A stretch of DNA of 63,062 nt, counting the filler, from Globobulimina sp. (Eukaryota): NCBI GenBank assembly GCA_003354225.1. It is 52 parts of 52 records of this genome, joined end to end, with 100 filler letters (N's around TTAATTAATTAA, not from the genome) between each part and the next. Parts side by side here need not be neighbours in the genome. Positions count along the whole stretch, not along the records: positions 29,162 to 30,276 come from PIVH01023126.1; positions 30,377 to 31,491 come from PIVH01023127.1; 50 more parts are not named here. One strand, given 5' to 3'. Positions within the stretch are counted from its first letter, which is position 1, and each line of letters starts with the position of its first letter. The notes beneath the pieces were generated by a model. It was given only the letters and a program-made list of their open reading frames with translations. It did no database searches and was not told where the DNA came from. Below, piece after piece: positions 1,117 through 61,848 of this stretch. A program made the translations under genes and the position numbers.

Positions 1117-1216
1117 NNNNNNNNNNNNNNNNNNNNNNNNNNNNNNNNNNNNNNNNNNNNTTAATTAATTAANNNNNNNNNNNNNNNNNNNNNNNNNNNN
1201 NNNNNNNNNNNNNNNN
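1117..1216. other. Artificial contig spacer (44 N + TTAATTAATTAA + 44 N); first of 51 copies, recurring every 1214-1215 bp
   Basis: Identical N-flanked linker with stop codons in all six frames; unrelated sequence on either side; contig lengths decrease along the window. Confidence 0.98.
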
Positions 1217-1564
1217 GTTAGAAATAATTTTTTTTTTTCAAGATGGGGAAGGACACAAAAGCTGTAAGAATTTAATTTAATTCCTTATAGTAAAATGATA
1301 AATACAAATCAAACAAAACGGTTTCAGAGGTATAAAACTAATAGAATCCGGTGGTTAAGCTCGAGATCTATCACATACATTTTTTTTTTTGATTTTTCTA
1401 TCATCTGAATCCTCAGTATAAAGTATAAAGTGAAATCATTTGTTTCTCTCATGTTTAGCATGCTTTTTCGTGCTTTTTGCTTTTTGGTGACATATTTTCG
1501 TGCTTTTTGCTAATTCAACCACATTTTATCTTTTCTTAAATTTTCTAAATCTTTCTTAACTTCA

Positions 1565-1921
1565 CTACATTCTGCCTCTACCCTGTCTTAAAAACCCAAT
1601 TTGTCCATTTGGAATTGATTTTGGTACTTTCCACCCAAATTCGTTTTTTAAACGTTGTAAAATATTAACAGTTTCACGTTTAATTCTTTTATTTTCATCA
1701 TTAACTAATTTTTTAACATTTGGATTTTGTTGATTCTCTAATTCCAATTTTGCCTTCTCGACACCAATATTATTTGCTTTTCGTAAAATTGTATGTACTT
1801 TATTTATTCCAAATTTAAATGTAACCCAATGTTTTTCAAATATTTTTTTACTTAATCCTCTGTTCTTATAAATATAACGGTATTTGTCAGCTTTGGTTCA
1901 ACTATTTGTTTTTCTAGCCAT
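1565..1921 (-). pseudogene. Small basic ORF interrupted by one in-frame TGA at codon 8
   Basis: ATG at 1921 reads MARKTNS*TKADKYRYIY... and continues in frame into the listed ORF 1565..1747. Confidence 0.3.
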
Positions 1922-2942
1922 TGCTTTGATGTTTAATGTGAAATGTTTTTTTTTAGTCACTTCAAATTAATACTAGTGTTTACAGTTATCATGGAAAGTA
2001 TGCAAACTATGAGTTACATCAAGGTTATGTATTTACTTAAGAATATAATATACTTTTCCTGTAGATTGGTTCGGAGGGATTAGTTTTTAGACGTTTTAGA
2101 TCTTCTAAAAACCGTCTCCATCTCCATGGTGTGCGAGGATAATCTAAAAACCGGTACAATCAAAGATATTTGGACTTTCATTGGTTTGATCGGTGTCCGA
2201 TTGAGTCAATACATCTATGACAACATCGCCCACTGCAATTTGCGTCACATCACAAACATTGTCATTTGTCATTGCCGGACATGAGCCTTCTTCCATTCCC
2301 GCCACATCCATTTGGAAGGAACCTGTTGCACNNNNNNNNNNNNNNNNNNNNNNNNNNNNNNNNNNNNNNNNNNNNTTAATTAATTAANNNNNNNNNNNNN
2401 NNNNNNNNNNNNNNNNNNNNNNNNNNNNNNNATGTTAAAACGACAAACAATGGCAAAATGATTGTTGCTCCAGAAAAATGTCTGAATCGATGGCATATGA
2501 GATTCAAAACAAAATACATAATGGATCCAAAGTTTATGAAAAGTGGATGAATTCGTTGATTTGTTCCAAACAATCACCAGTTGGCTGTTGACTATGTAAT
2601 TAAATAATTTAAATTGTAATTTTGTCGGTGCAAGGATAATTATCTAACATTTAAAAAACTTTCATATTAATTTCAAACCATTGCGTCACTAAAATTATAA
2701 AAGTAATGAACCAGCTGTTTCTATACTATATCATTTACAGTGTGTATCTACCCAAAATAATAAACACCACACATCACAAAAACACTATATGTCATTAAAA
2801 CTCAAAAGTACGCATTTGTAACTCTCAACTGACTAATCAATGGATTGAACAACGAGCACCAAGTGAAGATATATGGCGTTCAACCTCAGATTTTATCCCT
2901 ACGCCATCCCAATCATTTGGCCACCTACGATTAGGGCAAATA

Positions 2943-3546
2943 ATGAGTATGGAATTTGATTTTGTATGGCATGGCAGGACCAATAATCCGCGCACTGGGG
3001 TTTTTGAGAACTTCTTCCGTATTGGTTTTACTGCCGCCAATGGCAATAACTGTAACGGTGAGGGCAGCAGATATCCCTCATTCTGGTTAAGCGATGTTGC
3101 AAATACAATGCATGTGTCAGTCTCCGCTGACACAACTTGCCAACCACACCAATCATTATCAGCATACGGCAATATCACTGTAGAAACATCATATCATATT
3201 AAAATCGCCTTTAATAACACACACTTAGTGGTGGAGGTAAGTGGTGCTGCTAAACCATCATGGAACAAAAGCTGGACTCGAGAGCCCACTCAATCAATGT
3301 ACCTCGGACAAAATGTCTCTGTGTGGTGGATGTCAGATAACTTTGACGACCCTCCCTTCAATACAGGCAATGGAACATTTTCAAATATCACTATAATATC
3401 CAAAATATTCCCAACTAGTGCACCCACGACACATTCACCGACAGTGAGTACTATGACACCGACGTACAATCCGAGCGAAACACCCACACAAAGTCCATCA
3501 ATTACTCGTACAGTGTATCTGAGACAGACACCGTATACCAGTCCAT
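2943..3546 (+). CDS. Probable extracellular protein: beta-sandwich-like domain followed by PTxxP mucin-like repeats (fragment)
   Basis: Beta-rich region with Cys pair, then PTSAPTTHSPT...PTYNPSETPTQSP. Confidence 0.5.
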
Positions 3547-4130
3547 NNNNNNNNNNNNNNNNNNNNNNNNNNNNNNNNNNNNNNNNNNNNTTAATTAATT
3601 AANNNNNNNNNNNNNNNNNNNNNNNNNNNNNNNNNNNNNNNNNNNNATGCGTCAGGCGATCACTCATATTGCAGCAAGTATGTTGTGTTCCATTTGTACT
3701 CCGTTTGGCGTAGGTTCGCTGTGTGTATACAAACTGGTTTGTAAGGTTTGCGTCTGACTATGGCACCCTGACACTCTTTGAATAGTTCGTTTGTGTTTAG
3801 TTTCCTTCGTAGTATAGGTTAGCGAATAGTGCCCTGTATTGACAACAAAGTCTGCGCATCGTCAGCGGATGTAAGTGGACTGTCATACATCGCTCCTAAC
3901 CCTCTCCTTTCGTCTTACGGACCGGGACTGGTCTTGGTTTGGCGCATTTTTCTTTAGGTTTCACTGTGTGTATGTTTCTGATGTGTGTCTCTGTGGTTCC
4001 ATCTCTCCAATGATGGACCATCTGCGATTGGGAGTATCCTGTGAGTCTGCCACCGTTTGTATGATATTTGTGAGTGAGTTTGTGGCAAATCCCTTGCCGT
4101 AGCAACCAGTCATAGTTTTAGCATATTTCT

Positions 4131-4761
4131 GTGTTAAAAGATCAAATCTTGAATCAAAAACGTGCCAAATCCGATGGATTGCTGATCGCAAAAGCAGCGG
4201 ATATCAAGTTGGCGTTGGATGAATGCGTGCATTTATTATTGGATGGGTTTGGTTGTGTTTTTACTCTGATTAAGTATACGTGGTACATGTATTGGCAGTT
4301 TTATCTACGATTTGGGCAATCCGTCAAAGCCGCGCTCAGAGCTTTTATGGCAAAGAAATCCAACTTTCATTTATTTTGGACTACGTTCACGGAGCGTGCC
4401 TTCGACACTTTATATCAGAAAGCCACAGCGCATCGGTTTGCGGGATTAGTTGGATTCATTACGCGACATTTGAAGGATTTACGGGTGCTCATCAATACCA
4501 ATGTGGTGCCATTAATCAATGACAAGAATGTATCGCCACCTATATTTTGGCAGAAGATTGGCATACTTTTCAGTGTCAATCGCTTTCGTTTTCATAGTTC
4601 CGAGCACAGATTATGTTGGAAAGGCGCCGGTTTTGCGCATGAATGGGCTCAAATGAGCAAATCAGAAAGTAAGTTATTGCAGGTCATCCAAAATGTGCCT
4701 GAAGAATGTTTATATTCGTTCAAGCAAACTATCAGAACCAATACCGTCTCAGTCCCGGCAA
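4131..4761 (+). CDS. Hypothetical protein fragment
   Basis: About 210 open codons running to contig end; no motif recognised. Confidence 0.3.
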
Positions 4762-18226: not shown

Positions 18227-18465
18227 CCGTGAGTAGTACGGTCACGCATCTTGGAAAAACCAGACCAATCAACGCGCGGGTATTTTTGTTTTATCTCTAC
18301 GGAAATATGCTTCATCGCCTCGCCAATGCGCTCAATTCCTTTCTCAACGGCCATTTGACGCATCTCGTCTTGAAAGAATGTTTCCTGGCTGATTTCAGCC
18401 ACAAAGCGGTTCAGTAGGTCCGCGTTATGCACAATATCGGCTAGAAAACTCTCGTCAGGCCGCAT
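18227..18465 (-). CDS. hepT: HEPN/DUF86 RNase toxin (HepT-like), 3' truncated; bacterial
   Basis: AVEKGIERIGEAMK...YPRVDWSGFSKMRDRTTH with the RX4H motif; start overlaps the end of the MNT gene. Confidence 0.88.
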
Positions 18466-18754
18466 AAATCACAGTCTTGTTTTGTAACGCCGTTTCTTTG
18501 GCAAAGGGCTTTAGGCTGTTTGGGGTAAACAAATCCACTTCACGCCCCAAGAGAGCGGTTAGTTCATCCTGAAGACTAAAGAAGCGTTGATAACCCACGC
18601 CGGCATCCGCTTCAAATTCTACCAGAATATCCACATCACTCTCTGGGCTAAAATCATCTCGTAATACAGATCCAAATAGGGCTAATTCACGAATGTGATA
18701 GCGCTGGCAGAAAGTTGTTATCTTTTCACTTGAGATGTTAATTTGAGAAGGCAT
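18455..18754 (-). CDS. mntA: Minimal nucleotidyltransferase antitoxin (MntA-like); bacterial
   Basis: LFGSVLRDDFSPESDVDILVEF (GSX10DXD), LLGREVDL; 99 aa; AAGGA 9 nt upstream of the ATG. Confidence 0.92.
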   Translation of the reverse strand: MPSQINISSEKITTFCQRYHIRELALFGSVLRDDFSPESDVDILVEFEADAGVGYQRFFSLQDELTALLGREVDLFTPNSLKPFAKETALQNKTVIYAA

Positions 18755-19341
18755 AAAGTTGTATCCTTCATTTGACTATAAAAAGCGGCGTAGAATATAC
18801 CGCCGTCTTTCATCTCTATTCCGCCTAAACCTATTTTTCCCGACGCATCGGTCTCAATTATTAAGTCCGAATTGGCCTTATCGTAAAGCAGCCATTTAAA
18901 TGGGATTTTATTCTTTGATGGATCCCTTATTGGCACTAATACCATATTTATATCTCGCGCCATTTCCACTGTTATCCTTACAGTGTCTTTTGGGTCTTTT
19001 CCGGCGACGGCCTCCTCCAACCTTCTTAGCGCCGGAATTATATAATAATGGACATATGATATATGTCTTGATATTCCTACAAAAGATGTTATATCTTTTG
19101 CCTTTGCATCGGTCTTTTTCTTGTGTAATTTTAATAAATATTCTCCTTTTATTGTTGTTTTGATTATTTTGGCTCTTGGGATTGCCAAATAATTCTCAAT
19201 ACAGTTTATTATAAATCCGATCCATATCAGTATTTGGGTCGGAGTTATCATTTTTCGTTTTTGTGTCGGAATTCCCAGCCAATTAAACATCCATTTTATT
19301 GCGTAATATTGCTGCCAACATTTATTCTCATCATGATGGCC
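18755..19341 (-). mobile_element. DIRS-like retrotransposon fragment (RT thumb to start of RNase H)
   Basis: TPTQILIWIGFIIN, LAIPRAKI, SFVG, IETDASGKIGLGG fit the tyrosine-recombinase retroelement RT-RH pattern; frame runs into the MntA gene. Confidence 0.7.
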
Positions 19342-29061: not shown

Positions 29062-29163
29062 NNNNNNNNNNNNNNNNNNNNNNNNNNNNNNNNNNNNNNN
29101 NNNNNTTAATTAATTAANNNNNNNNNNNNNNNNNNNNNNNNNNNNNNNNNNNNNNNNNNNNTT

Positions 29164-29277
29164 TGTATTGAAATAATGAGCACATTTGGAAAAATAACCA
29201 AAAACAAGGAATTGGACCAAAATAATTTGACGACTTGCAGCCAGTTCTGGGCAAATCCGTCTCCTGTAGTCGCCCTT
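29164..29277 (+). repeat. Shared 114-bp element, copy 1, ending 30 bp upstream of a SPRY-like gene
   Basis: Identical to the reverse complement of 31365-31477 except one extra A; ends ...CTCCTGTAGTCGCCCTT followed by TAAAA. Confidence 0.95.
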
Positions 29278-29307
29278 TAAAATATAATCATACATGCTTC
29301 AGCTTTT

Positions 29308-29973
29308 ATGGATTCCGGTTTGAATTTTGCGAGAATAAAAGAAATTGATCAATTTACCAAGGATATAGTTTATGGATTCATGAATCAACAAGAAAACATA
29401 GCACCAATAATTTATAGTATTTGTTTGTTATTTTATCATATCAAAGAACAATGGACAGATCATGACCAATGGATAATGTTAAGAGACGCAAATAGAGATA
29501 TTATAACCAACACTTATGGTCGCGATCGGCTAGGGACTGTGTATGGATATCATTGGACAAATAATGTAATTCCATGTATCTACAGATGGAAAATAAAAAT
29601 ATTAATGATACATAAATATTCAAATATGCTTTTAGGGATTAATAGTTCAAATAAAAAATATATGAATTCAGCTTTTCATACAGAATCTCTTAAGGATGAT
29701 AAGTCATTTTATGCATTCACATACAATTGTAAATATTATGTGAATGGAGACACAAAAGGTTGTTCTCAAAAACGCAGGAAATGTGGAAACATTATCACAT
29801 TAGAATTGGATACAAAAAGAAAGACTGTAAAATTATATGTAAATGGCATTGCTCAAGATTTGGAATATAGAAATGCTGATTGTGATGTCAATTATTGTTT
29901 AGCGGTAGAAATGAATAAACCAAATGATTCGGTGCAAATTGTCGATTTTCAACAGATTCATCAAAAAATGTAA
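29308..29973 (+). CDS. Intronless SPRY/B30.2-like domain protein (family member 1)
   Basis: N-terminal KDIVYGF...ICLLFYH, then YRWKIKI, LLGI, GNIITLELDTKRKTVKLYVNG, YCLAV. Confidence 0.75.
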   Translation: MDSGLNFARIKEIDQFTKDIVYGFMNQQENIAPIIYSICLLFYHIKEQWTDHDQWIMLRDANRDIITNTYGRDRLGTVYGYHWTNNVIPCIYRWKIKILMIHKYSNMLLGINSSNKKYMNSAFHTESLKDDKSFYAFTYNCKYYVNGDTKGCSQKRRKCGNIITLELDTKRKTVKLYVNGIAQDLEYRNADCDVNYCLAVEMNKPNDSVQIVDFQQIHQKM

Positions 29974-30376
29974 TCAAAATTCTGCACACCAAAACTTCAC
30001 AGAACATTTTTCGCAAAGTTCCTCAGCAAATTTTGACGTTCCGAAAGTGTTCAAACTAAATATAATCATACGAAGAAACCGGATTTGATGATCTAATTGG
30101 AATTAGTGTTTGGTATATAATCATATATTCTCTACAAATGGGAACTTGTCATTTGAGTTAAATCGATATTTAAACGCTGTCCTGGACTTGACAACGAAAT
30201 AAAATAGACAAATAACACAAAAACCAAATAGTTCATGCGTTTATTACTTATATATTAATAAACGATGAAAACATCANNNNNNNNNNNNNNNNNNNNNNNN
30301 NNNNNNNNNNNNNNNNNNNNTTAATTAATTAANNNNNNNNNNNNNNNNNNNNNNNNNNNNNNNNNNNNNNNNNNNN

Positions 30377-30635
30377 GATGTAATTGATGTACATCCAATA
30401 ATATTATTTGAATAATAATTGCCACGATAAATACAATTGAAATAAAAAATGAAATAATACCTACCAATGTTATGCTTATCATAAATAGGACTGCTTTGTT
30501 CTTACATCGTGATTTGATTTCACTTTTTTTATATGCTACATAAATTAAGTGGGAAATGATTGCCAGCACAATGGTTGCTGATAACGTAAAAAGGCATAAC
30601 ATAACGTATGCACTGGTAATTTTGAGTCCAGACAT
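30377..30635 (-). CDS. Multi-pass membrane protein, N-terminal fragment
   Basis: Two hydrophobic helices separated by a basic loop; ATG about 70 bp after the SPRY-like stop. Confidence 0.45.
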
Positions 30636-30703
30636 TGCAACAAACTGTTTAATAAGAAAAGATTTTGCTGTACCAAAACGCAGAAACAAAAAACACAAAT
30701 ATG

Positions 30704-31364
30704 TTAATTTAACAATTCAATCGCAGACTCGTTGCCTTGTAAACATATGGCAGCTCTATATTTTGCATTTTTAACACTGAATGCTTTGCCAAAATGCTGC
30801 CCATTTACAGCATAACTTATTTCCAATTTATCCAAATCTAAAAACATTTCAACAATGTCATTTGCTTTACATTTATCACAATACGTATATGAATGTTCAT
30901 AACTTCCTCCACCTTTTAAACTTACTAATTTCCCTGCTTTCAAAACTAAGGCATAAGCGACATCACCTCCACATGTGAAAAATGTATCAATTGGTGGTGA
31001 TAAATCATTTCGTATCCTCCATACACCGATTAAGCACCATATTTTTGACATTTTATGGATTTTAAATTTCCATCGATAGCATCCTGTATCACAGATATCA
31101 GTTAAAAATGCTGATTTATAATGTGTTGACCAACCGCCTGTGTCTTCTCCTATTTTAATAACAGTATTATGTTTGAGACTTAATCCTGATCCAATTTGCA
31201 ATGGATCCCAGGCATCCTTTTTCCAATAATACATTAGACAAATAAACCGAATAAATGAGAATACATTGTTAAAGTTACTCTCTCCAAATATTGCCATTGT
31301 AGTTTGCCTGATAAATCCAAATACTGTATCTTTGGTTTGTGCATTGACAGATTTCAATTGTTTC
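30704..31364 (-). CDS. Intronless SPRY/B30.2-like domain protein (family member 2); start codon replaced by the shared element
   Basis: KDTVFGFIR...ICLMYY, YRWKFKI, LIGVW, NDIVEMFLDLDKLEISYAVNG, YRAAI; in-frame TAG inside the element just upstream. Confidence 0.75.
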
Positions 31365-31477
31365 AAGGGCGACTACAGGAGACGGATTTGCCCAGAACTG
31401 GCTGCAAGTCGTCAAATTATTTTGGTCCAATTCCTTGTTTTTGGTTATTTTCCAAATGTGCTCATTATTTCAATACA
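31365..31477 (-). repeat. Shared 113-bp element, copy 2, abutting the 5' end of a SPRY-like frame
   Basis: Same sequence and same orientation relative to the gene as 29164-29277; ends ...GTCGCCCTT followed by GAAAC. Confidence 0.95.
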
Positions 31478-31613
31478 CACATAATTTTCTCNNNNNNNNN
31501 NNNNNNNNNNNNNNNNNNNNNNNNNNNNNNNNNNNTTAATTAATTAANNNNNNNNNNNNNNNNNNNNNNNNNNNNNNNNNNNNNNNNNNNNAATCACAAA
31601 AACAAAATAATAT

Positions 31614-35136: not shown

Positions 35137-35278
35137 NNNNNNNNNNNNNNNNNNNNNNNNNNNNNNNNNNNNNNNNNNNNTTAATTAATTAANNNNNNNN
35201 NNNNNNNNNNNNNNNNNNNNNNNNNNNNNNNNNNNNAAATCCATAAATTCCCAGCAGGCATCGGCTCCCAACAGAATA

Positions 35279-36351
35279 CAACAACAACAACAATACATTT
35301 TATTTATACTGCACTAAAAGCAGTGAAACACCGCGCGAGAAAGTACAGTTTTTAGTAAAGTTAATTAAATAAAGTTAATATACTATACTCTGTCACTAAC
35401 GATGCTTGACTGCTTTTTTAAAATTATTAAAATCCATATTTATACATTCGTCAGATAAGGAATTCCATAGTTGACAAGTTAGAATGAAAAAACTCTTATT
35501 ACAGCGGTCTCTAGTAAAAACTGGAATATAATACTGTTCTGAATTATTCAAATTGCATGTAGCTCTTGTTCTCACATTGATTATTCTCTGCTGGACAATA
35601 TCTTCTGGCAAATAACGAAGTTTGTAATGGTATTTGTAAAATAATAATAATCTTTTTTCTCTGGCAATATTCTCAATGGTCTTCCATCTCAACTGATGTA
35701 AAAGGTCTTCATATGATGACTGATGGTTATTTGTTGCTTGCCTGGCAGCATATTTGTGCACGGACTCAAATTTCCTTTTGTCCTTTGCATATACTGGCCA
35801 TATCACAGGGATAGAATATAGAAGAGATGGCAAAATCGTTTGACAATAAAGTTTCTTAAAAACATATTGAGGGACAAAACGTCTGCAAGTTCGTGAAAAG
35901 GCTCCAATTGCACGTTTGCACTTTAAGGAAGTCTTGATAGAATGTTCACTCCATGATAATTTTGGGTCGAGCCAAACGCCCAAATATTTGTATGAGTTAA
36001 CTTGTTCTAATGGAAAATCTTGTATAGTTGGAGTAAATTCCAAAGTGGGCTTGGGATTAGCATCTGACAATGTGAATAACATGTACCTCGTCTTTGAAAT
36101 ATTGAGTGTAAGACCAAGATAATGGTAACAATTTGTAATTAGCTTGATGTCATGCAACATATCTCTTTGTTCTGTCAATGTTTCTGCCTTTTTGAAATAT
36201 GCCAGATCGTCTGCATATCCAATAGAGCAAGCAGAATTAGACAATATTAATTGTTGAACAGGGGCAGTATAGGCATTGAACAAAAGGGGGCAAAAAATTG
36301 AGCCCTGTGGTACTCCAGAGATTACATCACGCTCAGTTGACACACAACCAA
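35279..36351 (-). mobile_element. Non-LTR retrotransposon 3' end: RT, 3' UTR and (TTG)n tail (CR1/L2/Jockey group)
   Basis: SGVPQGSIFCPLLF, YADDL, YKYLGVWLD, LWNSL; stop at 35396; AATAAA near 35304-35299; (TTG)5 at 35293-35279. Confidence 0.9.
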
Positions 36352-55089: not shown

Positions 55090-55629
55090 TCAAACGTATG
55101 CGATTTTCGGGATCAAATAATAATAGTTTTTATTTCGGATAAATTTTTCTTGGCATACACCACATTTTCGTTTGATTCTAAGCTTTCTTCGACAAGAACT
55201 ACATAAACAATGTCCACAAGACTTAAATCTGCACATTCTTTTGCTTTCTATTGGATTTGCACATAAATCACAATAAAAGATAATATTTTTACTTCCAAAA
55301 TAATAGCAATTAAATCTGTTATTTACAGTCGATGTTTGTTGTGATAATAAATTTGTTTGCATTTCATTAACAATCTTATTTTTCCATAATTTTTGAAACT
55401 TCCTATCTTGAAATAAATTTTTAACATTATTCTTAAGTTGTTCGTCACATAAAAACTTAGCCAAATTCCTTTTTGTCGCTTTTAATGTACTTAACTTAAA
55501 TACAAACTTTCTTAATTTTACATTTAAAATATCATATTCCTCCTCGTGATAAAACTTATTTGCAATTAAATCTTTTAATTGTTTTGGAATATAAATATTT
55601 GCACAATATGCCTCATTTAGCTCCTGCAT
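55090..55629 (-). CDS. C3HC4 RING-finger protein, C-terminal part
   Basis: CDLC...CGHCLCSSC...CGVC. Confidence 0.78.
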   Translation of the reverse strand: MQELNEAYCANIYIPKQLKDLIANKFYHEEEYDILNVKLRKFVFKLSTLKATKRNLAKFLCDEQLKNNVKNLFQDRKFQKLWKNKIVNEMQTNLLSQQTSTVNNRFNCYYFGSKNIIFYCDLCANPIESKRMCRFKSCGHCLCSSCRRKLRIKRKCGVCQEKFIRNKNYYYLIPKIAYV

Positions 55630-55878
55630 ACATTGTCGTATATATCCATGACATAAAATGTTATCTTTTTCAATAATAAATCAAATGTCTTTCCAGAGAT
55701 ATCGTAAATTATACTGCGGAATATTTCACACAATGCGCCATCAAATAAGGACAAAAATCCGTAATTTTGTATAATTCCNNNNNNNNNNNNNNNNNNNNNN
55801 NNNNNNNNNNNNNNNNNNNNNNTTAATTAATTAANNNNNNNNNNNNNNNNNNNNNNNNNNNNNNNNNNNNNNNNNNNN

Positions 55879-56806: not shown

Positions 56807-58306
56807 GATGTGTTTTTGAGCTTAATATCTTTTATGTAAAAGTTTTAGTTCAGATATCTTGTAGCCAAATCAAATTAAATGGAACACTTGAATTGGAAAG
56901 TCATAGCATCGGCGAGCGTGATATCAGTAGCGGCCGTAGCACTTATTTACAAACTCAATACCGACAGTGCACCACTATCATCAGTTGCAGATNNNNNNNN
57001 NNNNNNNNNNNNNNNNNNNNNNNNNNNNNNNNNNNNTTAATTAATTAANNNNNNNNNNNNNNNNNNNNNNNNNNNNNNNNNNNNNNNNNNNNAATGAATA
57101 AACAAACTCATCACCGATCATTAACAAACAACAAATGAATGCTTTTCATCATAAATATCGTATTTGGAAATCTGTAATATTGTTTGTTGTCATATCCCCT
57201 CCAAATGGCTCCAATATTCATTCATATGATAGTACATCAAACATATAAAAATGTCAAATTGGCTAAAAAACCCAAAAACCAAATCTTGGTACACTGTGAA
57301 TCGAATTTCTTGATTTGGAAATAGGACTGAAGCATGTTTTTTCAGTGTAAACTGTTTTTTAATCGTAGCAACAATCCATCTGGTCATAATAACGGGCGTC
57401 GCCTTCATTATTCCTTGAACTAATTACTGGTATGTCATTATTCTATGCACAATTAAATTGGTAAAGCTTCTAAACGATGGAATCGGTGGTGCCAATCTAT
57501 AGATATGTAATATGTTTGAATCAAAGATATGAAATGTTTATGTCAATTTATTATTTTGGACAGAGAGATCCTGTTGTTTTGAGGTGGCGTGAAGGAGCTA
57601 TCAATGGATATGATGGTGAAACAACATTGGATACGCACATGCATAATGATGGTTTGATTCAGTTGTTTGTGAAAGGAATGAAAAAAATAACATGTTGCAA
57701 GGGGTTATATTTTCTCAAACCAAAATATTTTTAGCATCCTTTTTTGCAGAGAAACGCTGCATATTTTGAAGCTCTCCTTGCACTTTCTAATTATTGTATA
57801 AAGCTATGAATATTCAGCGTTTATCTGCCACAACGGATTTTAAAAATATTTTGGTTTGAAAATAACCCTGACAACGAGTTATTATTTTCTTCCATTTTTC
57901 GACACCTTCTCTCAAGTCTCAATTCAATCATTCCAATGTCATATCCAATTCAACTCATTTTATTCAACATATTCATTTCAAAACACCAATGTGTGTACCA
58001 ACCATTGGGTCACAATTCTTGACAATGCACGCAACCATGATCAAAGTGACTAGATTAGAAATGTTTTTCAAAGTAACTCTGTCTCTATTTGTATGTGTTT
58101 TGCAGGTTGTAACTAACATGTACGTGTTTGTTAGTTAATATAAGTTAAGTTTGACTAGTAGTAGTGTGACAAAATCCGATTCTAGACTCACAAACTCACA
58201 GATTCANNNNNNNNNNNNNNNNNNNNNNNNNNNNNNNNNNNNNNNNNNNNTTAATTAATTAANNNNNNNNNNNNNNNNNNNNNNNNNNNNNNNNNNNNNN
58301 NNNNNN

Positions 58307-59349: not shown

Positions 59350-59521
59350 AAGTTGCCATTATAAAAGGTTAAAAAAAGTTTTCGAAAGAATGATTAAATT
59401 TATTAAACAAAAGGTTGTACNNNNNNNNNNNNNNNNNNNNNNNNNNNNNNNNNNNNNNNNNNNNTTAATTAATTAANNNNNNNNNNNNNNNNNNNNNNNN
59501 NNNNNNNNNNNNNNNNNNNNG

Positions 59522-60634
59522 CTTGACGAAAGACTAAATTTTGACGCCCATTTTGATAAAATCCGAGCTAAATCCATGCGTAGTTACTGGCGTTTGTACT
59601 TTACAATGAAATCCGGTATCAAATTGTCCCCACTGTCGATTGCAATTCTGTATAAATCCTTGGCCCGTTCTAGAATTGAATATGGATTATGCCACTATTT
59701 CCCTTTTGATACAAACAATCTTTTAAATGTCCTCCAAAATAAATTCCTCCGACTTGCGATCCCCTGCCGGCTGGACTCACCAATGGACATTATCCAATTC
59801 CTCCTAAAAATTGAACCAATTGAGCATAGAGCCCATTATCTAACAATGCGCCAATTGGCGAGAGCTTACTATAACAATCGATACCATCCATTAAACAAAA
59901 CTCTCCATTCCCTAAATAGATATAAACAAACCATACAGTCCCATCATTACAGAAAATCCAATAAAAATAAAACAAATAAGTTTACAAATTTAAATAAAAA
60001 TCCATTAATGATTGCAGCCAAATATTGTAAAAATAATAATGAAATAAAAGCGCTTACACAGAAATTCAATAAAATGAATAAAATCCAAGTGACAGCCTCT
60101 CCTGCATATAACCTAAAATCTATCCCATCGAACTTTGATGTCAATCTATCGCCGGCTGAGCCAACAACACCCTCCGATCCAACAATTACCATATCTTTTA
60201 CCGATGGATCATGTGACCCCAATCCAGGGAAAGGAGGCGCAGCAATTTATATTCCAACCATCGCATAGATCCCCTTTCAAACAAGTTTATTATTTTAAAA
60301 TCCCAGTAACAATTACAACCGCCGAAATTGAAGCCGTCCATATGATCCTAAATTATATATTAAATAATCCAAATAAATTATGCCGACATTTTGCCGCTCC
60401 TCCAATTTATTAATGGACAAAATTACCCGAAATATAATGATACAAAAATTCTAATTGAAAATATTTATATAAAACTTATGCAAATCCAGCAATATCAACC
60501 AAACCTCGTAATATCTTTTATAAAAATAAAATCCCACAATAAATTTAATGATGAAGTTGATAGAATGGCCAACTTTGCAGCAAAAGATGCAATGTATGAC
60601 CGAGCTCTATACAACCAAATCTCTTATAATGCCA
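59522..60634 (+). mobile_element. Degenerate non-LTR retrotransposon: RT thumb plus RNase H
   Basis: LDERLNFDAH, LYKSLARSRIEYG, LQNKFLRL, FTDGSC..GKGGAA, AEIEAV, IKSH..NDEVDRMA; stop at 60266-60268 and frame changes. Confidence 0.85.
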
Positions 60635-61328: not shown

Positions 61329-61848
61329 ATGGCAGCTCGAAACTATGAGTTAGATTTTAGGAAATGTAAAAAAGTGCCACTGGAGGTAAGGGATACAGTA
61401 TTTGGATTTGTACGACAGTTTGAAAAGGAATTGGCAATAAAACAGACAGTGTCAGATCTTATTCATCATATATGTCTATTGTATTATTATGAGAATGATG
61501 AATGGGACACAAATAATTTACAAACTGCTGGATATGCAATTAATCAAAATGTAATCACAAAAACAGGTGAAGATTATGAGTGGAGAACTGTCTTTTTATC
61601 AAAGATTGTAGCTAATGGTAAATATGAATGGTCCTTTAAAATTAAAAAATATACTGGCAATAATGCGGTTATGTTTGGTATTTGGGACAATAGCTATGAT
61701 CCTAAAGCAATATTGAATAAACATTTGAGTGCCATAGGAAACAGAGCATATGCATTTTATTCTTCTCGCACGTATGCAAAATTACGGCAACATGAACAAG
61801 ATGGAGTTGGTCCAAATTATGGCATCTCCCTCGTCGAAGGCGATATTA
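61329..61848 (+). CDS. SPRY/B30.2-like domain protein (family member 3), 3' truncated
   Basis: RDTVFGFVR...ICLLYYY, YEWSFKI, FGIW, EGDI; the shared 113-bp element is absent from the 594 bp upstream. Confidence 0.75.

Follow-up and report, generated by a model that had tools for sequence, protein, structure and literature searches.

A shared contig-end sequence beside two SPRY-like genes of Globobulimina sp.: the probable end of an abundant interspersed repeat

Several transposon families are known to insert preferentially close to the 5′ ends of genes; mPing, for its part, targets TTA/TAA. In dinoflagellates, relict spliced leaders precede recycled cDNA-derived genes, and the known leaders are a few tens of nucleotides long. 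We know of no documentation of trans-splicing in foraminifera. Here we consider 63,062 nucleotides of joined contigs (the window) from Globobulimina sp. (GenBank assembly GCA_003354225.1), in which two contigs, A and B, share a nearly identical end sequence, hereafter the element. Each of the two copies stops at the same base beside the start of an uninterrupted SPRY-like gene: gene A in contig A and gene B in contig B.

As far as the excerpted texts of three reports go, the closest described systems are the following. mPing of rice, a miniature inverted-repeat transposable element (MITE), occurs more often than expected in the 1 kb that precedes transcription start sites (PMC4065317). Kolobok transposons are defined by TTAA target-site duplications and by 5′-RR..YY-3′ termini (PMC9587614). 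Chimeric retrogenes made by template switching of long interspersed nuclear elements (LINEs), such as U6-L1 and WEIRD-MGL of Magnaporthe, have parts that are joined directly and in the same orientation, with variable 5′ truncation (PMC2104539).

The window comprises 52 size-sorted contigs of 1114–1116 bp, spaced by Ns, from a highly fragmented assembly; it is not a single locus, and G+C per contig ranges from about 0.29 to 0.46. A preliminary description, made from this DNA alone, held that two contigs share 113 of 114 bp, with a single A of difference, and that in both, equally oriented to a SPRY-like gene, the identity breaks off at one common base. Both observations are borne out. BLASTN aligns 29164–29277 with 31477–31365 at 113/114 identity, the sole difference being an extra A within an A-run, and the likeness continues up to the very start of contig A, where 29163 is one further mismatch. 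Within the window there are exactly two occurrences of the 17-mer that spans the boundary, 29261–29277 (+) and 31365–31381 (−); 0 of 100 shuffles match it. The copies are inverted relative to each other, but both face their gene in one orientation, and both occupy the extreme end of a contig of about 1115 bp. Contigs A and B are file neighbours, and the only pair of contigs within the window with any repeat in common; the independence of their two junctions is therefore not assured.

Evidence from outside the window comes from Logan contigs of four public runs (X1, X2, X6, and X7), aligned onto contig B only with a likeness cut-off of 90%. Run X2 belongs to a separate study and year, and X6 and X7 are guessed to be RNA. 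Depths below, where summed, are summed depths of contig words, which are not copy numbers. At the terminus (31365–31402) they reach 4584 in X1 and 2810 in X2, compared with 5.35 and 21.3 for gene B; the element thus has some 130 to 860 times the summed depth of the adjoining gene. Single contigs with the exact 49-nt terminus still exceed the gene by a factor of tens to hundreds: their depths of 523.7 (X1) and 800 (X2) are about 98 and 38 times that of the gene contig in the same run. Moreover, five further flanks, mutually unrelated, end at 31360–31371, and together with A and B they make seven different junctions with one terminus. One of the five has a variant terminus, found in X1 and X2 alike. 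Junction A itself is confirmed independently, in that X2 contains the flank of contig A joined to the element. A by-eye comparison of the seven junctions revealed no pair of flanks resembling the two sides of one copy.

The element also has subfamilies. In both X1 and X2, contigs that share 31365–31404 leave at 31404/31405 for a loosely similar interior, and depth in X1 decreases inward from the terminus (4584, 3544, 2107, and 1208). This departure and this fall mark the outer 40 nt as the best-conserved part of the element, and presumably as its functional terminus. The one-base difference between copies A and B is not private to them: both forms are abundant in X1 (1042 of 2070 depth units), and just one of the two was recovered in X2.

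High depth, a single terminus, and unrelated flanks together argue that contigs A and B share the terminal part of an interspersed repeat present in many copies, which is most likely an end of a transposable element; we give this reading a probability of roughly 0.62. The preliminary description had proposed a transposon, and its proposal stands as far as an interspersed-element end is concerned. A short-read assembler would be unable to pass such a repeat, and it is probably because of the repeat's abundance that both contigs, each of about 1.1 kb, break inside the element. One copy would then sit 30 nt upstream of the gene A start codon, in the leader or promoter, and the other within gene B, at about codon 8, so that the codons before it would be lost or lie beyond the element. 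The apparent link with SPRY-like genes would have two sources: insertion close to the 5′ ends of genes, and the frequent occurrence of this gene family in the short contigs sampled here. Short contigs of fragmented assemblies are in general enriched for repeat boundaries and for multi-copy genes.

Several points weigh against this reading. Both window copies lie within 30 nt of a gene start of the same family, in the same direction; random insertion makes this unlikely, and there may be a further link. The abundance that supports the reading is in part a matter of summed contig depth, with the caveat given above. The visible 25–30 nt of each new flank are too short to show gene starts or to reach the family motif. 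The contigs stop 116 and 127 nt into the element, short of its far end, and over that length show no inverted terminus, target-site duplication, or gene for a transposase or reverse transcriptase; any class assigned to the element is tentative. Finally, exact terminus patterns searched in public metagenome, genome, and viral contig collections gave 0 matches, and with them no cross-genome comparison. (The lone match of a shorter 20-mer, inside a bacterial recombinase-like gene of about 50% GC, was set aside as chance.) A general preference for 5′ ends, or one of the rival accounts weighed below, is needed to explain two starts of the same family; the base rate of that family (about 6% of contigs, with three clear members and one weak member in 52) softens this coincidence without removing it. 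Targeting of SPRY starts is not supported, its instances being still the two junctions first described, and nothing suggests that the element is a special docking site for SPRY genes. An ATG lies 14–16 nt from the element in two of the five new flanks; by our estimate from base composition, chance alone would place an ATG within 30 nt in about 4 of 10 flanks.

What class of element might this be? The preliminary description took an AGGG terminus beside TTAA as a fit to Kolobok/T2-type transposons. However, TTAA precedes AGGG in only one of the seven junctions (contig A), the others having TTCA, AACA, TGAA, GGTA, TTCA, and AGCA. Its target-site claim is thus not supported. Of the outcome that it had named as speaking against its reading, most copies being followed by unrelated sequence at ordinary TTAA sites, one half is observed: the unrelated flanks are there and the TTAA sites are not. 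In 7/7 junctions AA directly precedes GGG, or GAG in the case of the variant, so this AA is more likely part of the element. Read as AAGGG or AGGG, the terminus does begin with two purines, as in Kolobok, a weak resemblance that many sequences have. With TTAA at 1/7 junctions, counted at the one visible end of each copy, identity as Kolobok is not supported.

Three of the features that a DNA transposon with terminal inverted repeats (TIRs), or a MITE, is expected to show are present: high copy number, one sharp conserved terminus, and varied flanks. With the subfamilies added, these favour a TIR DNA transposon or MITE, a class preferred here without proof. The 1:1 ratio of the two indel forms would fit as well, if one form is the left arm and the other the right arm of an element with long inverted ends. 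In a retroposon of the type lacking long terminal repeats (non-LTR), the 3′ tail should be rich in A or consist of a microsatellite; the element terminates in ..GTCGCCCTT, and unrelated flanks follow directly. The rise in depth toward the terminus (1208 to 4584, X1) is expected of 5′ truncation, and equally of subfamily divergence at the 90% cut-off.

Searches for a known RNA or protein within the element were negative. ARAGORN found 0 tRNA genes in it. Rfam, searched at E up to 10 on both strands with 2.3 kb and with the element alone, returned no RNA-gene family and only sub-threshold noise (SNORD34, ST7 long non-coding RNA fragments, and a CRISPR repeat model). A suspected resemblance to the central stem of U4 small nuclear RNA and to an Sm site had no Rfam support and was dropped. 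Folding gave no significant structure compared with shuffles (DNA z −1.03, RNA z 0.56). Two of the three antisense frames of the element were used in translated searches: one, against proteins of 73–2000 residues, had no match, and the other matched only P0003, a repetitive protein and a spurious hit. The element strand antisense to the genes (31365–31481, + strand) has no TAA, TAG, or TGA in any frame over 117 nt, as do 0.3% of dinucleotide shuffles; there are 15 stop-free stretches of at least 123 nt elsewhere in the window, so this may mean nothing and is given no weight.

Genes A and B belong to one family, although they differ in how well they match the SPRY domain. Gene B reaches the Pfam SPRY model (PF00622) with 28.0 bits (E 2.5e-6), against a gathering cut-off of 26.3, whereas gene A scores 19.6 bits; BLASTP links A to B at E 7e-7, with 28% identity over 120 residues. 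About 17 codons of the gene precede the family motif. A profile search of public proteins for the family gave four matches only, and all close relatives of the genes come from EukProt. An AlphaFold model of gene B is too poor to use (mean predicted local distance difference test score, pLDDT, 44.3). Among the 52 contigs there are three clear family members and a weak fourth, and two of the three clear members carry the element, as the preliminary description stated.

Its account of the two gene starts also agrees with what we find. It placed the element 30 bp before the gene A start codon; the element ends at 29277 and the ATG is at 29308. It further held that the element replaces the first codons of gene B. 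Indeed, gene B has no ATG ahead of the conserved N-terminal motif, a TAG within the element interrupts its frame two codons before the first sense codon, and EukProt protein P0001, 67% identical to gene B, starts 8 residues earlier than the homologous part of B. The end of the element thus falls at about codon 8. Contigs of X6 and X7 match parts of the gene B body at 95–99% likeness; none of them covers any of 31293–31491. Coordinates are collected in Table 1.

Table 1. Features discussed, with positions counted along the window.
Feature	Positions	Strand	Remarks
Contig A	29162–30276		PIVH01023126.1
Contig B	30377–31491		PIVH01023127.1
Element copy A	29162..29277	+	116 nt, cut by contig start; terminus ..GTCGCCCTT at 29277
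Element copy B	31365..31491	−	127 nt, reaches contig end; terminus at 31365
Outermost 40 nt of element	31365..31404		Deepest part; sole part retained by the diverged subfamily, whose interior departs at 31404/31405
Spacer, element end to gene A ATG	29278..29307	+	30 nt; in-frame TAA 29278–29280; holds first copy of a 14-nt direct repeat
Gene A	29308..29973	+	221-residue uninterrupted open reading frame, SPRY-like; ATG at 29308
Gene B	30704..31366	−	Uninterrupted SPRY-domain open reading frame; first codons overlap the last bases of the element
Third family member	61329..61848	+	Own ATG; about 590 nt of upstream sequence without the element
Fourth family member, weak, possibly decayed	57193..57423	−	N-terminal profile E 3.7e-4; without the element
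Candidate start and intron, predicted from sequence only	31373..31482	−	ATG 31482–31480, one codon, GT 31476, pyrimidine-rich tract, AG 31374–31373; 104 nt between

Around gene A there is a 14-nt exact direct repeat (29280–29293 and 30058–30071, +). The first copy starts 3 nt past the end of the element, the second lies 85 nt past the stop codon, and a third, partial copy (30115–30125, 11 nt exact) follows 57 nt beyond the second. The 11-mer core of this repeat occurs exactly three times in the window, always within contig A, and a comparable bracketing repeat looked for around gene B gave none. The repeat could be a promoter-like motif, or else a duplication, either a local one or one made at the target site when a gene-sized piece inserted.

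Other observations concern the surroundings of the genes and the rest of the window. Downstream of gene B, 30377–30660 holds a 125-residue hydrophobic open reading frame (ORF) on the minus strand. Depth there, compared with gene B, is 6.1 vs 5.35 in X1, 137 vs 21 in X2, and 85–260 vs 3–6 in X6/X7, and one X2 contig stops at 30658 in sequence resembling an Illumina adapter. The ORF may belong to a neighbouring gene with high expression. An ORF at 55093–55680 (minus) has a GYIRQ-type N-terminal motif, looks family-like by eye, and continues into a cysteine-rich, RING-like tail. It, too, has no ATG before the motif, and the family profile is non-significant (E 0.56). Close to the weak fourth family member, in contig 48, lies a 225-nt imperfect palindrome (57672–57896, 72% self-complementary). 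A longer one of 365 nt, 84% self-complementary, stands at the start of contig 15 (17012–17376). Long ORFs in 35237–36351, 59521–60634, and 18227–19341 resemble fragments of non-LTR reverse transcriptase and RNase H, by eye only; the reverse transcriptase- and RNase H-like ORFs of the window have no sequence in common with the element.

The shared orientation and the shared gene family invite other explanations. Read on the gene strand, the element could represent the 3′ terminus of either a retroposon or an abundant cellular RNA, with the genes as retrocopies joined to it by LINE template switching. A chimera of this kind is expected to lie as a whole between short direct repeats, with a full-length cellular RNA as its 5′ part. 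Such an origin would account for a leader that has a sharp 3′ end and is joined, always the same way round, to genes truncated at varying 5′ points: at both window junctions the join is direct and in one orientation, and the gene parts begin differently, in the 5′ leader for A and at about codon 8 for B. Both genes are uninterrupted ORFs; depth climbs toward the terminus, as 5′-truncated retrocopies would give; and the window holds ORFs that by eye look like reverse transcriptase fragments. The gene strand also folds into a terminal hairpin ahead of a short tail, but this fold is no better than that of shuffles (z 0.56). Nor is gene A, gene B, or the element followed by an A-rich tail or microsatellite, and the Rfam and ARAGORN searches described above matched the element to no known RNA family or tRNA. 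Membership of both genes in one family would moreover be left unexplained, and on balance we consider the retro-type origin unlikely. Same orientation and same family would both follow from a single event if there is one copy of the element here and not two: contigs B and A would be the left and right flanks of one insertion, with inverted ends of at least about 114 nt, between head-to-head paralogues. The two contigs are file neighbours and the only pair in the window to share a repeat, although an assembler that orders contigs by their end sequence could have placed them so. Copies A and B are mutually inverted, like two arms of one element, and the equal depth of the indel forms in X1 (1042 of 2070) is what a fixed difference between arms would give; X2, however, shows just one form. 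If the element starts at GGG, its flanks are TTTCAA and TTTAAA, 5/6 alike, but this match emerged after several boundaries and lengths had been tried. By our own reading, the reconstructed empty site gives gene B no in-frame start and leaves about 30 nt between the genes. This explanation, too, we think improbable.

The same facts might be read as a sign that the element works together with the genes. It might be a mobile 5′ module linked to the family, one that supplies a promoter, a start codon, and a small intron, or is specifically drawn to family starts. Two of the three clear members do carry it at their start, whereas the third and fourth do not. On its gene strand, copy B offers an ATG, one codon, and a GT, with an AG 104 nt on and 8 nt before the terminus, and gene B in frame; the gene B frame is open from 31372 onward, after this candidate acceptor. 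The same frame stays open through the visible 25–30 nt in five of the seven junctions, but about three are expected by chance. An in-frame fit, too, would by our estimate not be rare, given that there are two possible donors for the one usable acceptor. The same splice in gene A would yield only a 7-codon upstream ORF, ending at the TAA at 29278, and in the runs aligned there is no RNA contig over 31293–31491 and no reported spliced joint. A family-linked module of any kind is accordingly a doubtful proposition. In its most explicit form, judged slightly more doubtful again, the element would be a mobile 5′ gene module that re-heads genes by means of its own start codon, one codon, and 104-nt intron. 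A gene hit within its first codons, like gene B, would thereby be re-headed and not killed, and the spread of the module ahead of a fast-diverging SPRY-like family would amount to a transposon-driven supply of a new promoter and first exon. Least probable by far is the fixed recombination or expression site, accepting variable SPRY cassettes, that the preliminary description had offered as its second model. Identity does stop at one base before two divergent genes, and the 14-nt direct repeat brackets gene A. Gene B has no comparable bracketing repeat, however, and the third, partial copy of the 14-mer, 57 nt on, fits local duplication better than a cassette boundary. What contradicts the model most directly is the copy number with its many unrelated flanks: a depth about a hundred to several hundred times that of the gene, with at least seven flanks across two studies, does not describe one fixed site.

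The end of an abundant interspersed repeat, probably a transposable element, is thus our preferred reading: a sharp terminus, high copy number, varied flanks, and subfamilies, without a TTAA target, are what the data contain, and from them we infer the transposon nature of the repeat, its class, and its preference for 5′ ends. This is an ordinary kind of feature. It does mark an uncharacterised family of repeats, very abundant in the genome of a protist about which little is known. It also carries a caution: sequence shared at contig ends beside genes in a fragmented assembly should be regarded first as a repeat boundary. Should the junctions truly favour gene starts or the SPRY-like family, the element would provide a handle on how a transposon reshapes 5′ ends within an expanding gene family in Rhizaria.

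How does the element compare with known systems? Like the relict leaders of dinoflagellates, it is one sequence ending at one base before divergent intronless genes; unlike them, the shared part spans at least 113–127 nt. The TTA/TAA target of mPing is not seen at its junctions. As described in the excerpts considered here, the U6-L1 and WEIRD-MGL chimeras (PMC2104539) likewise have a constant 5′ part that ends at one base and is directly joined to uninterrupted genes starting at different points, but the genes at the element's junctions have no A-rich 3′ tail and its 5′ part matches no Rfam RNA. Kolobok/T2-type MITEs (PMC9587614) differ in their TTAA target, present at 1/7 junctions of the element, and agree in a purine-start terminus (AG or AA) and in the TTAA before AGGG at the junction of contig A. 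Although known from one end alone, the element resembles mPing-like MITE and TIR transposons, so far as PMC4065317 describes them in part, in its high copy number, its sharp conserved terminus, its terminus-sharing subfamilies, and its insertions near gene starts.

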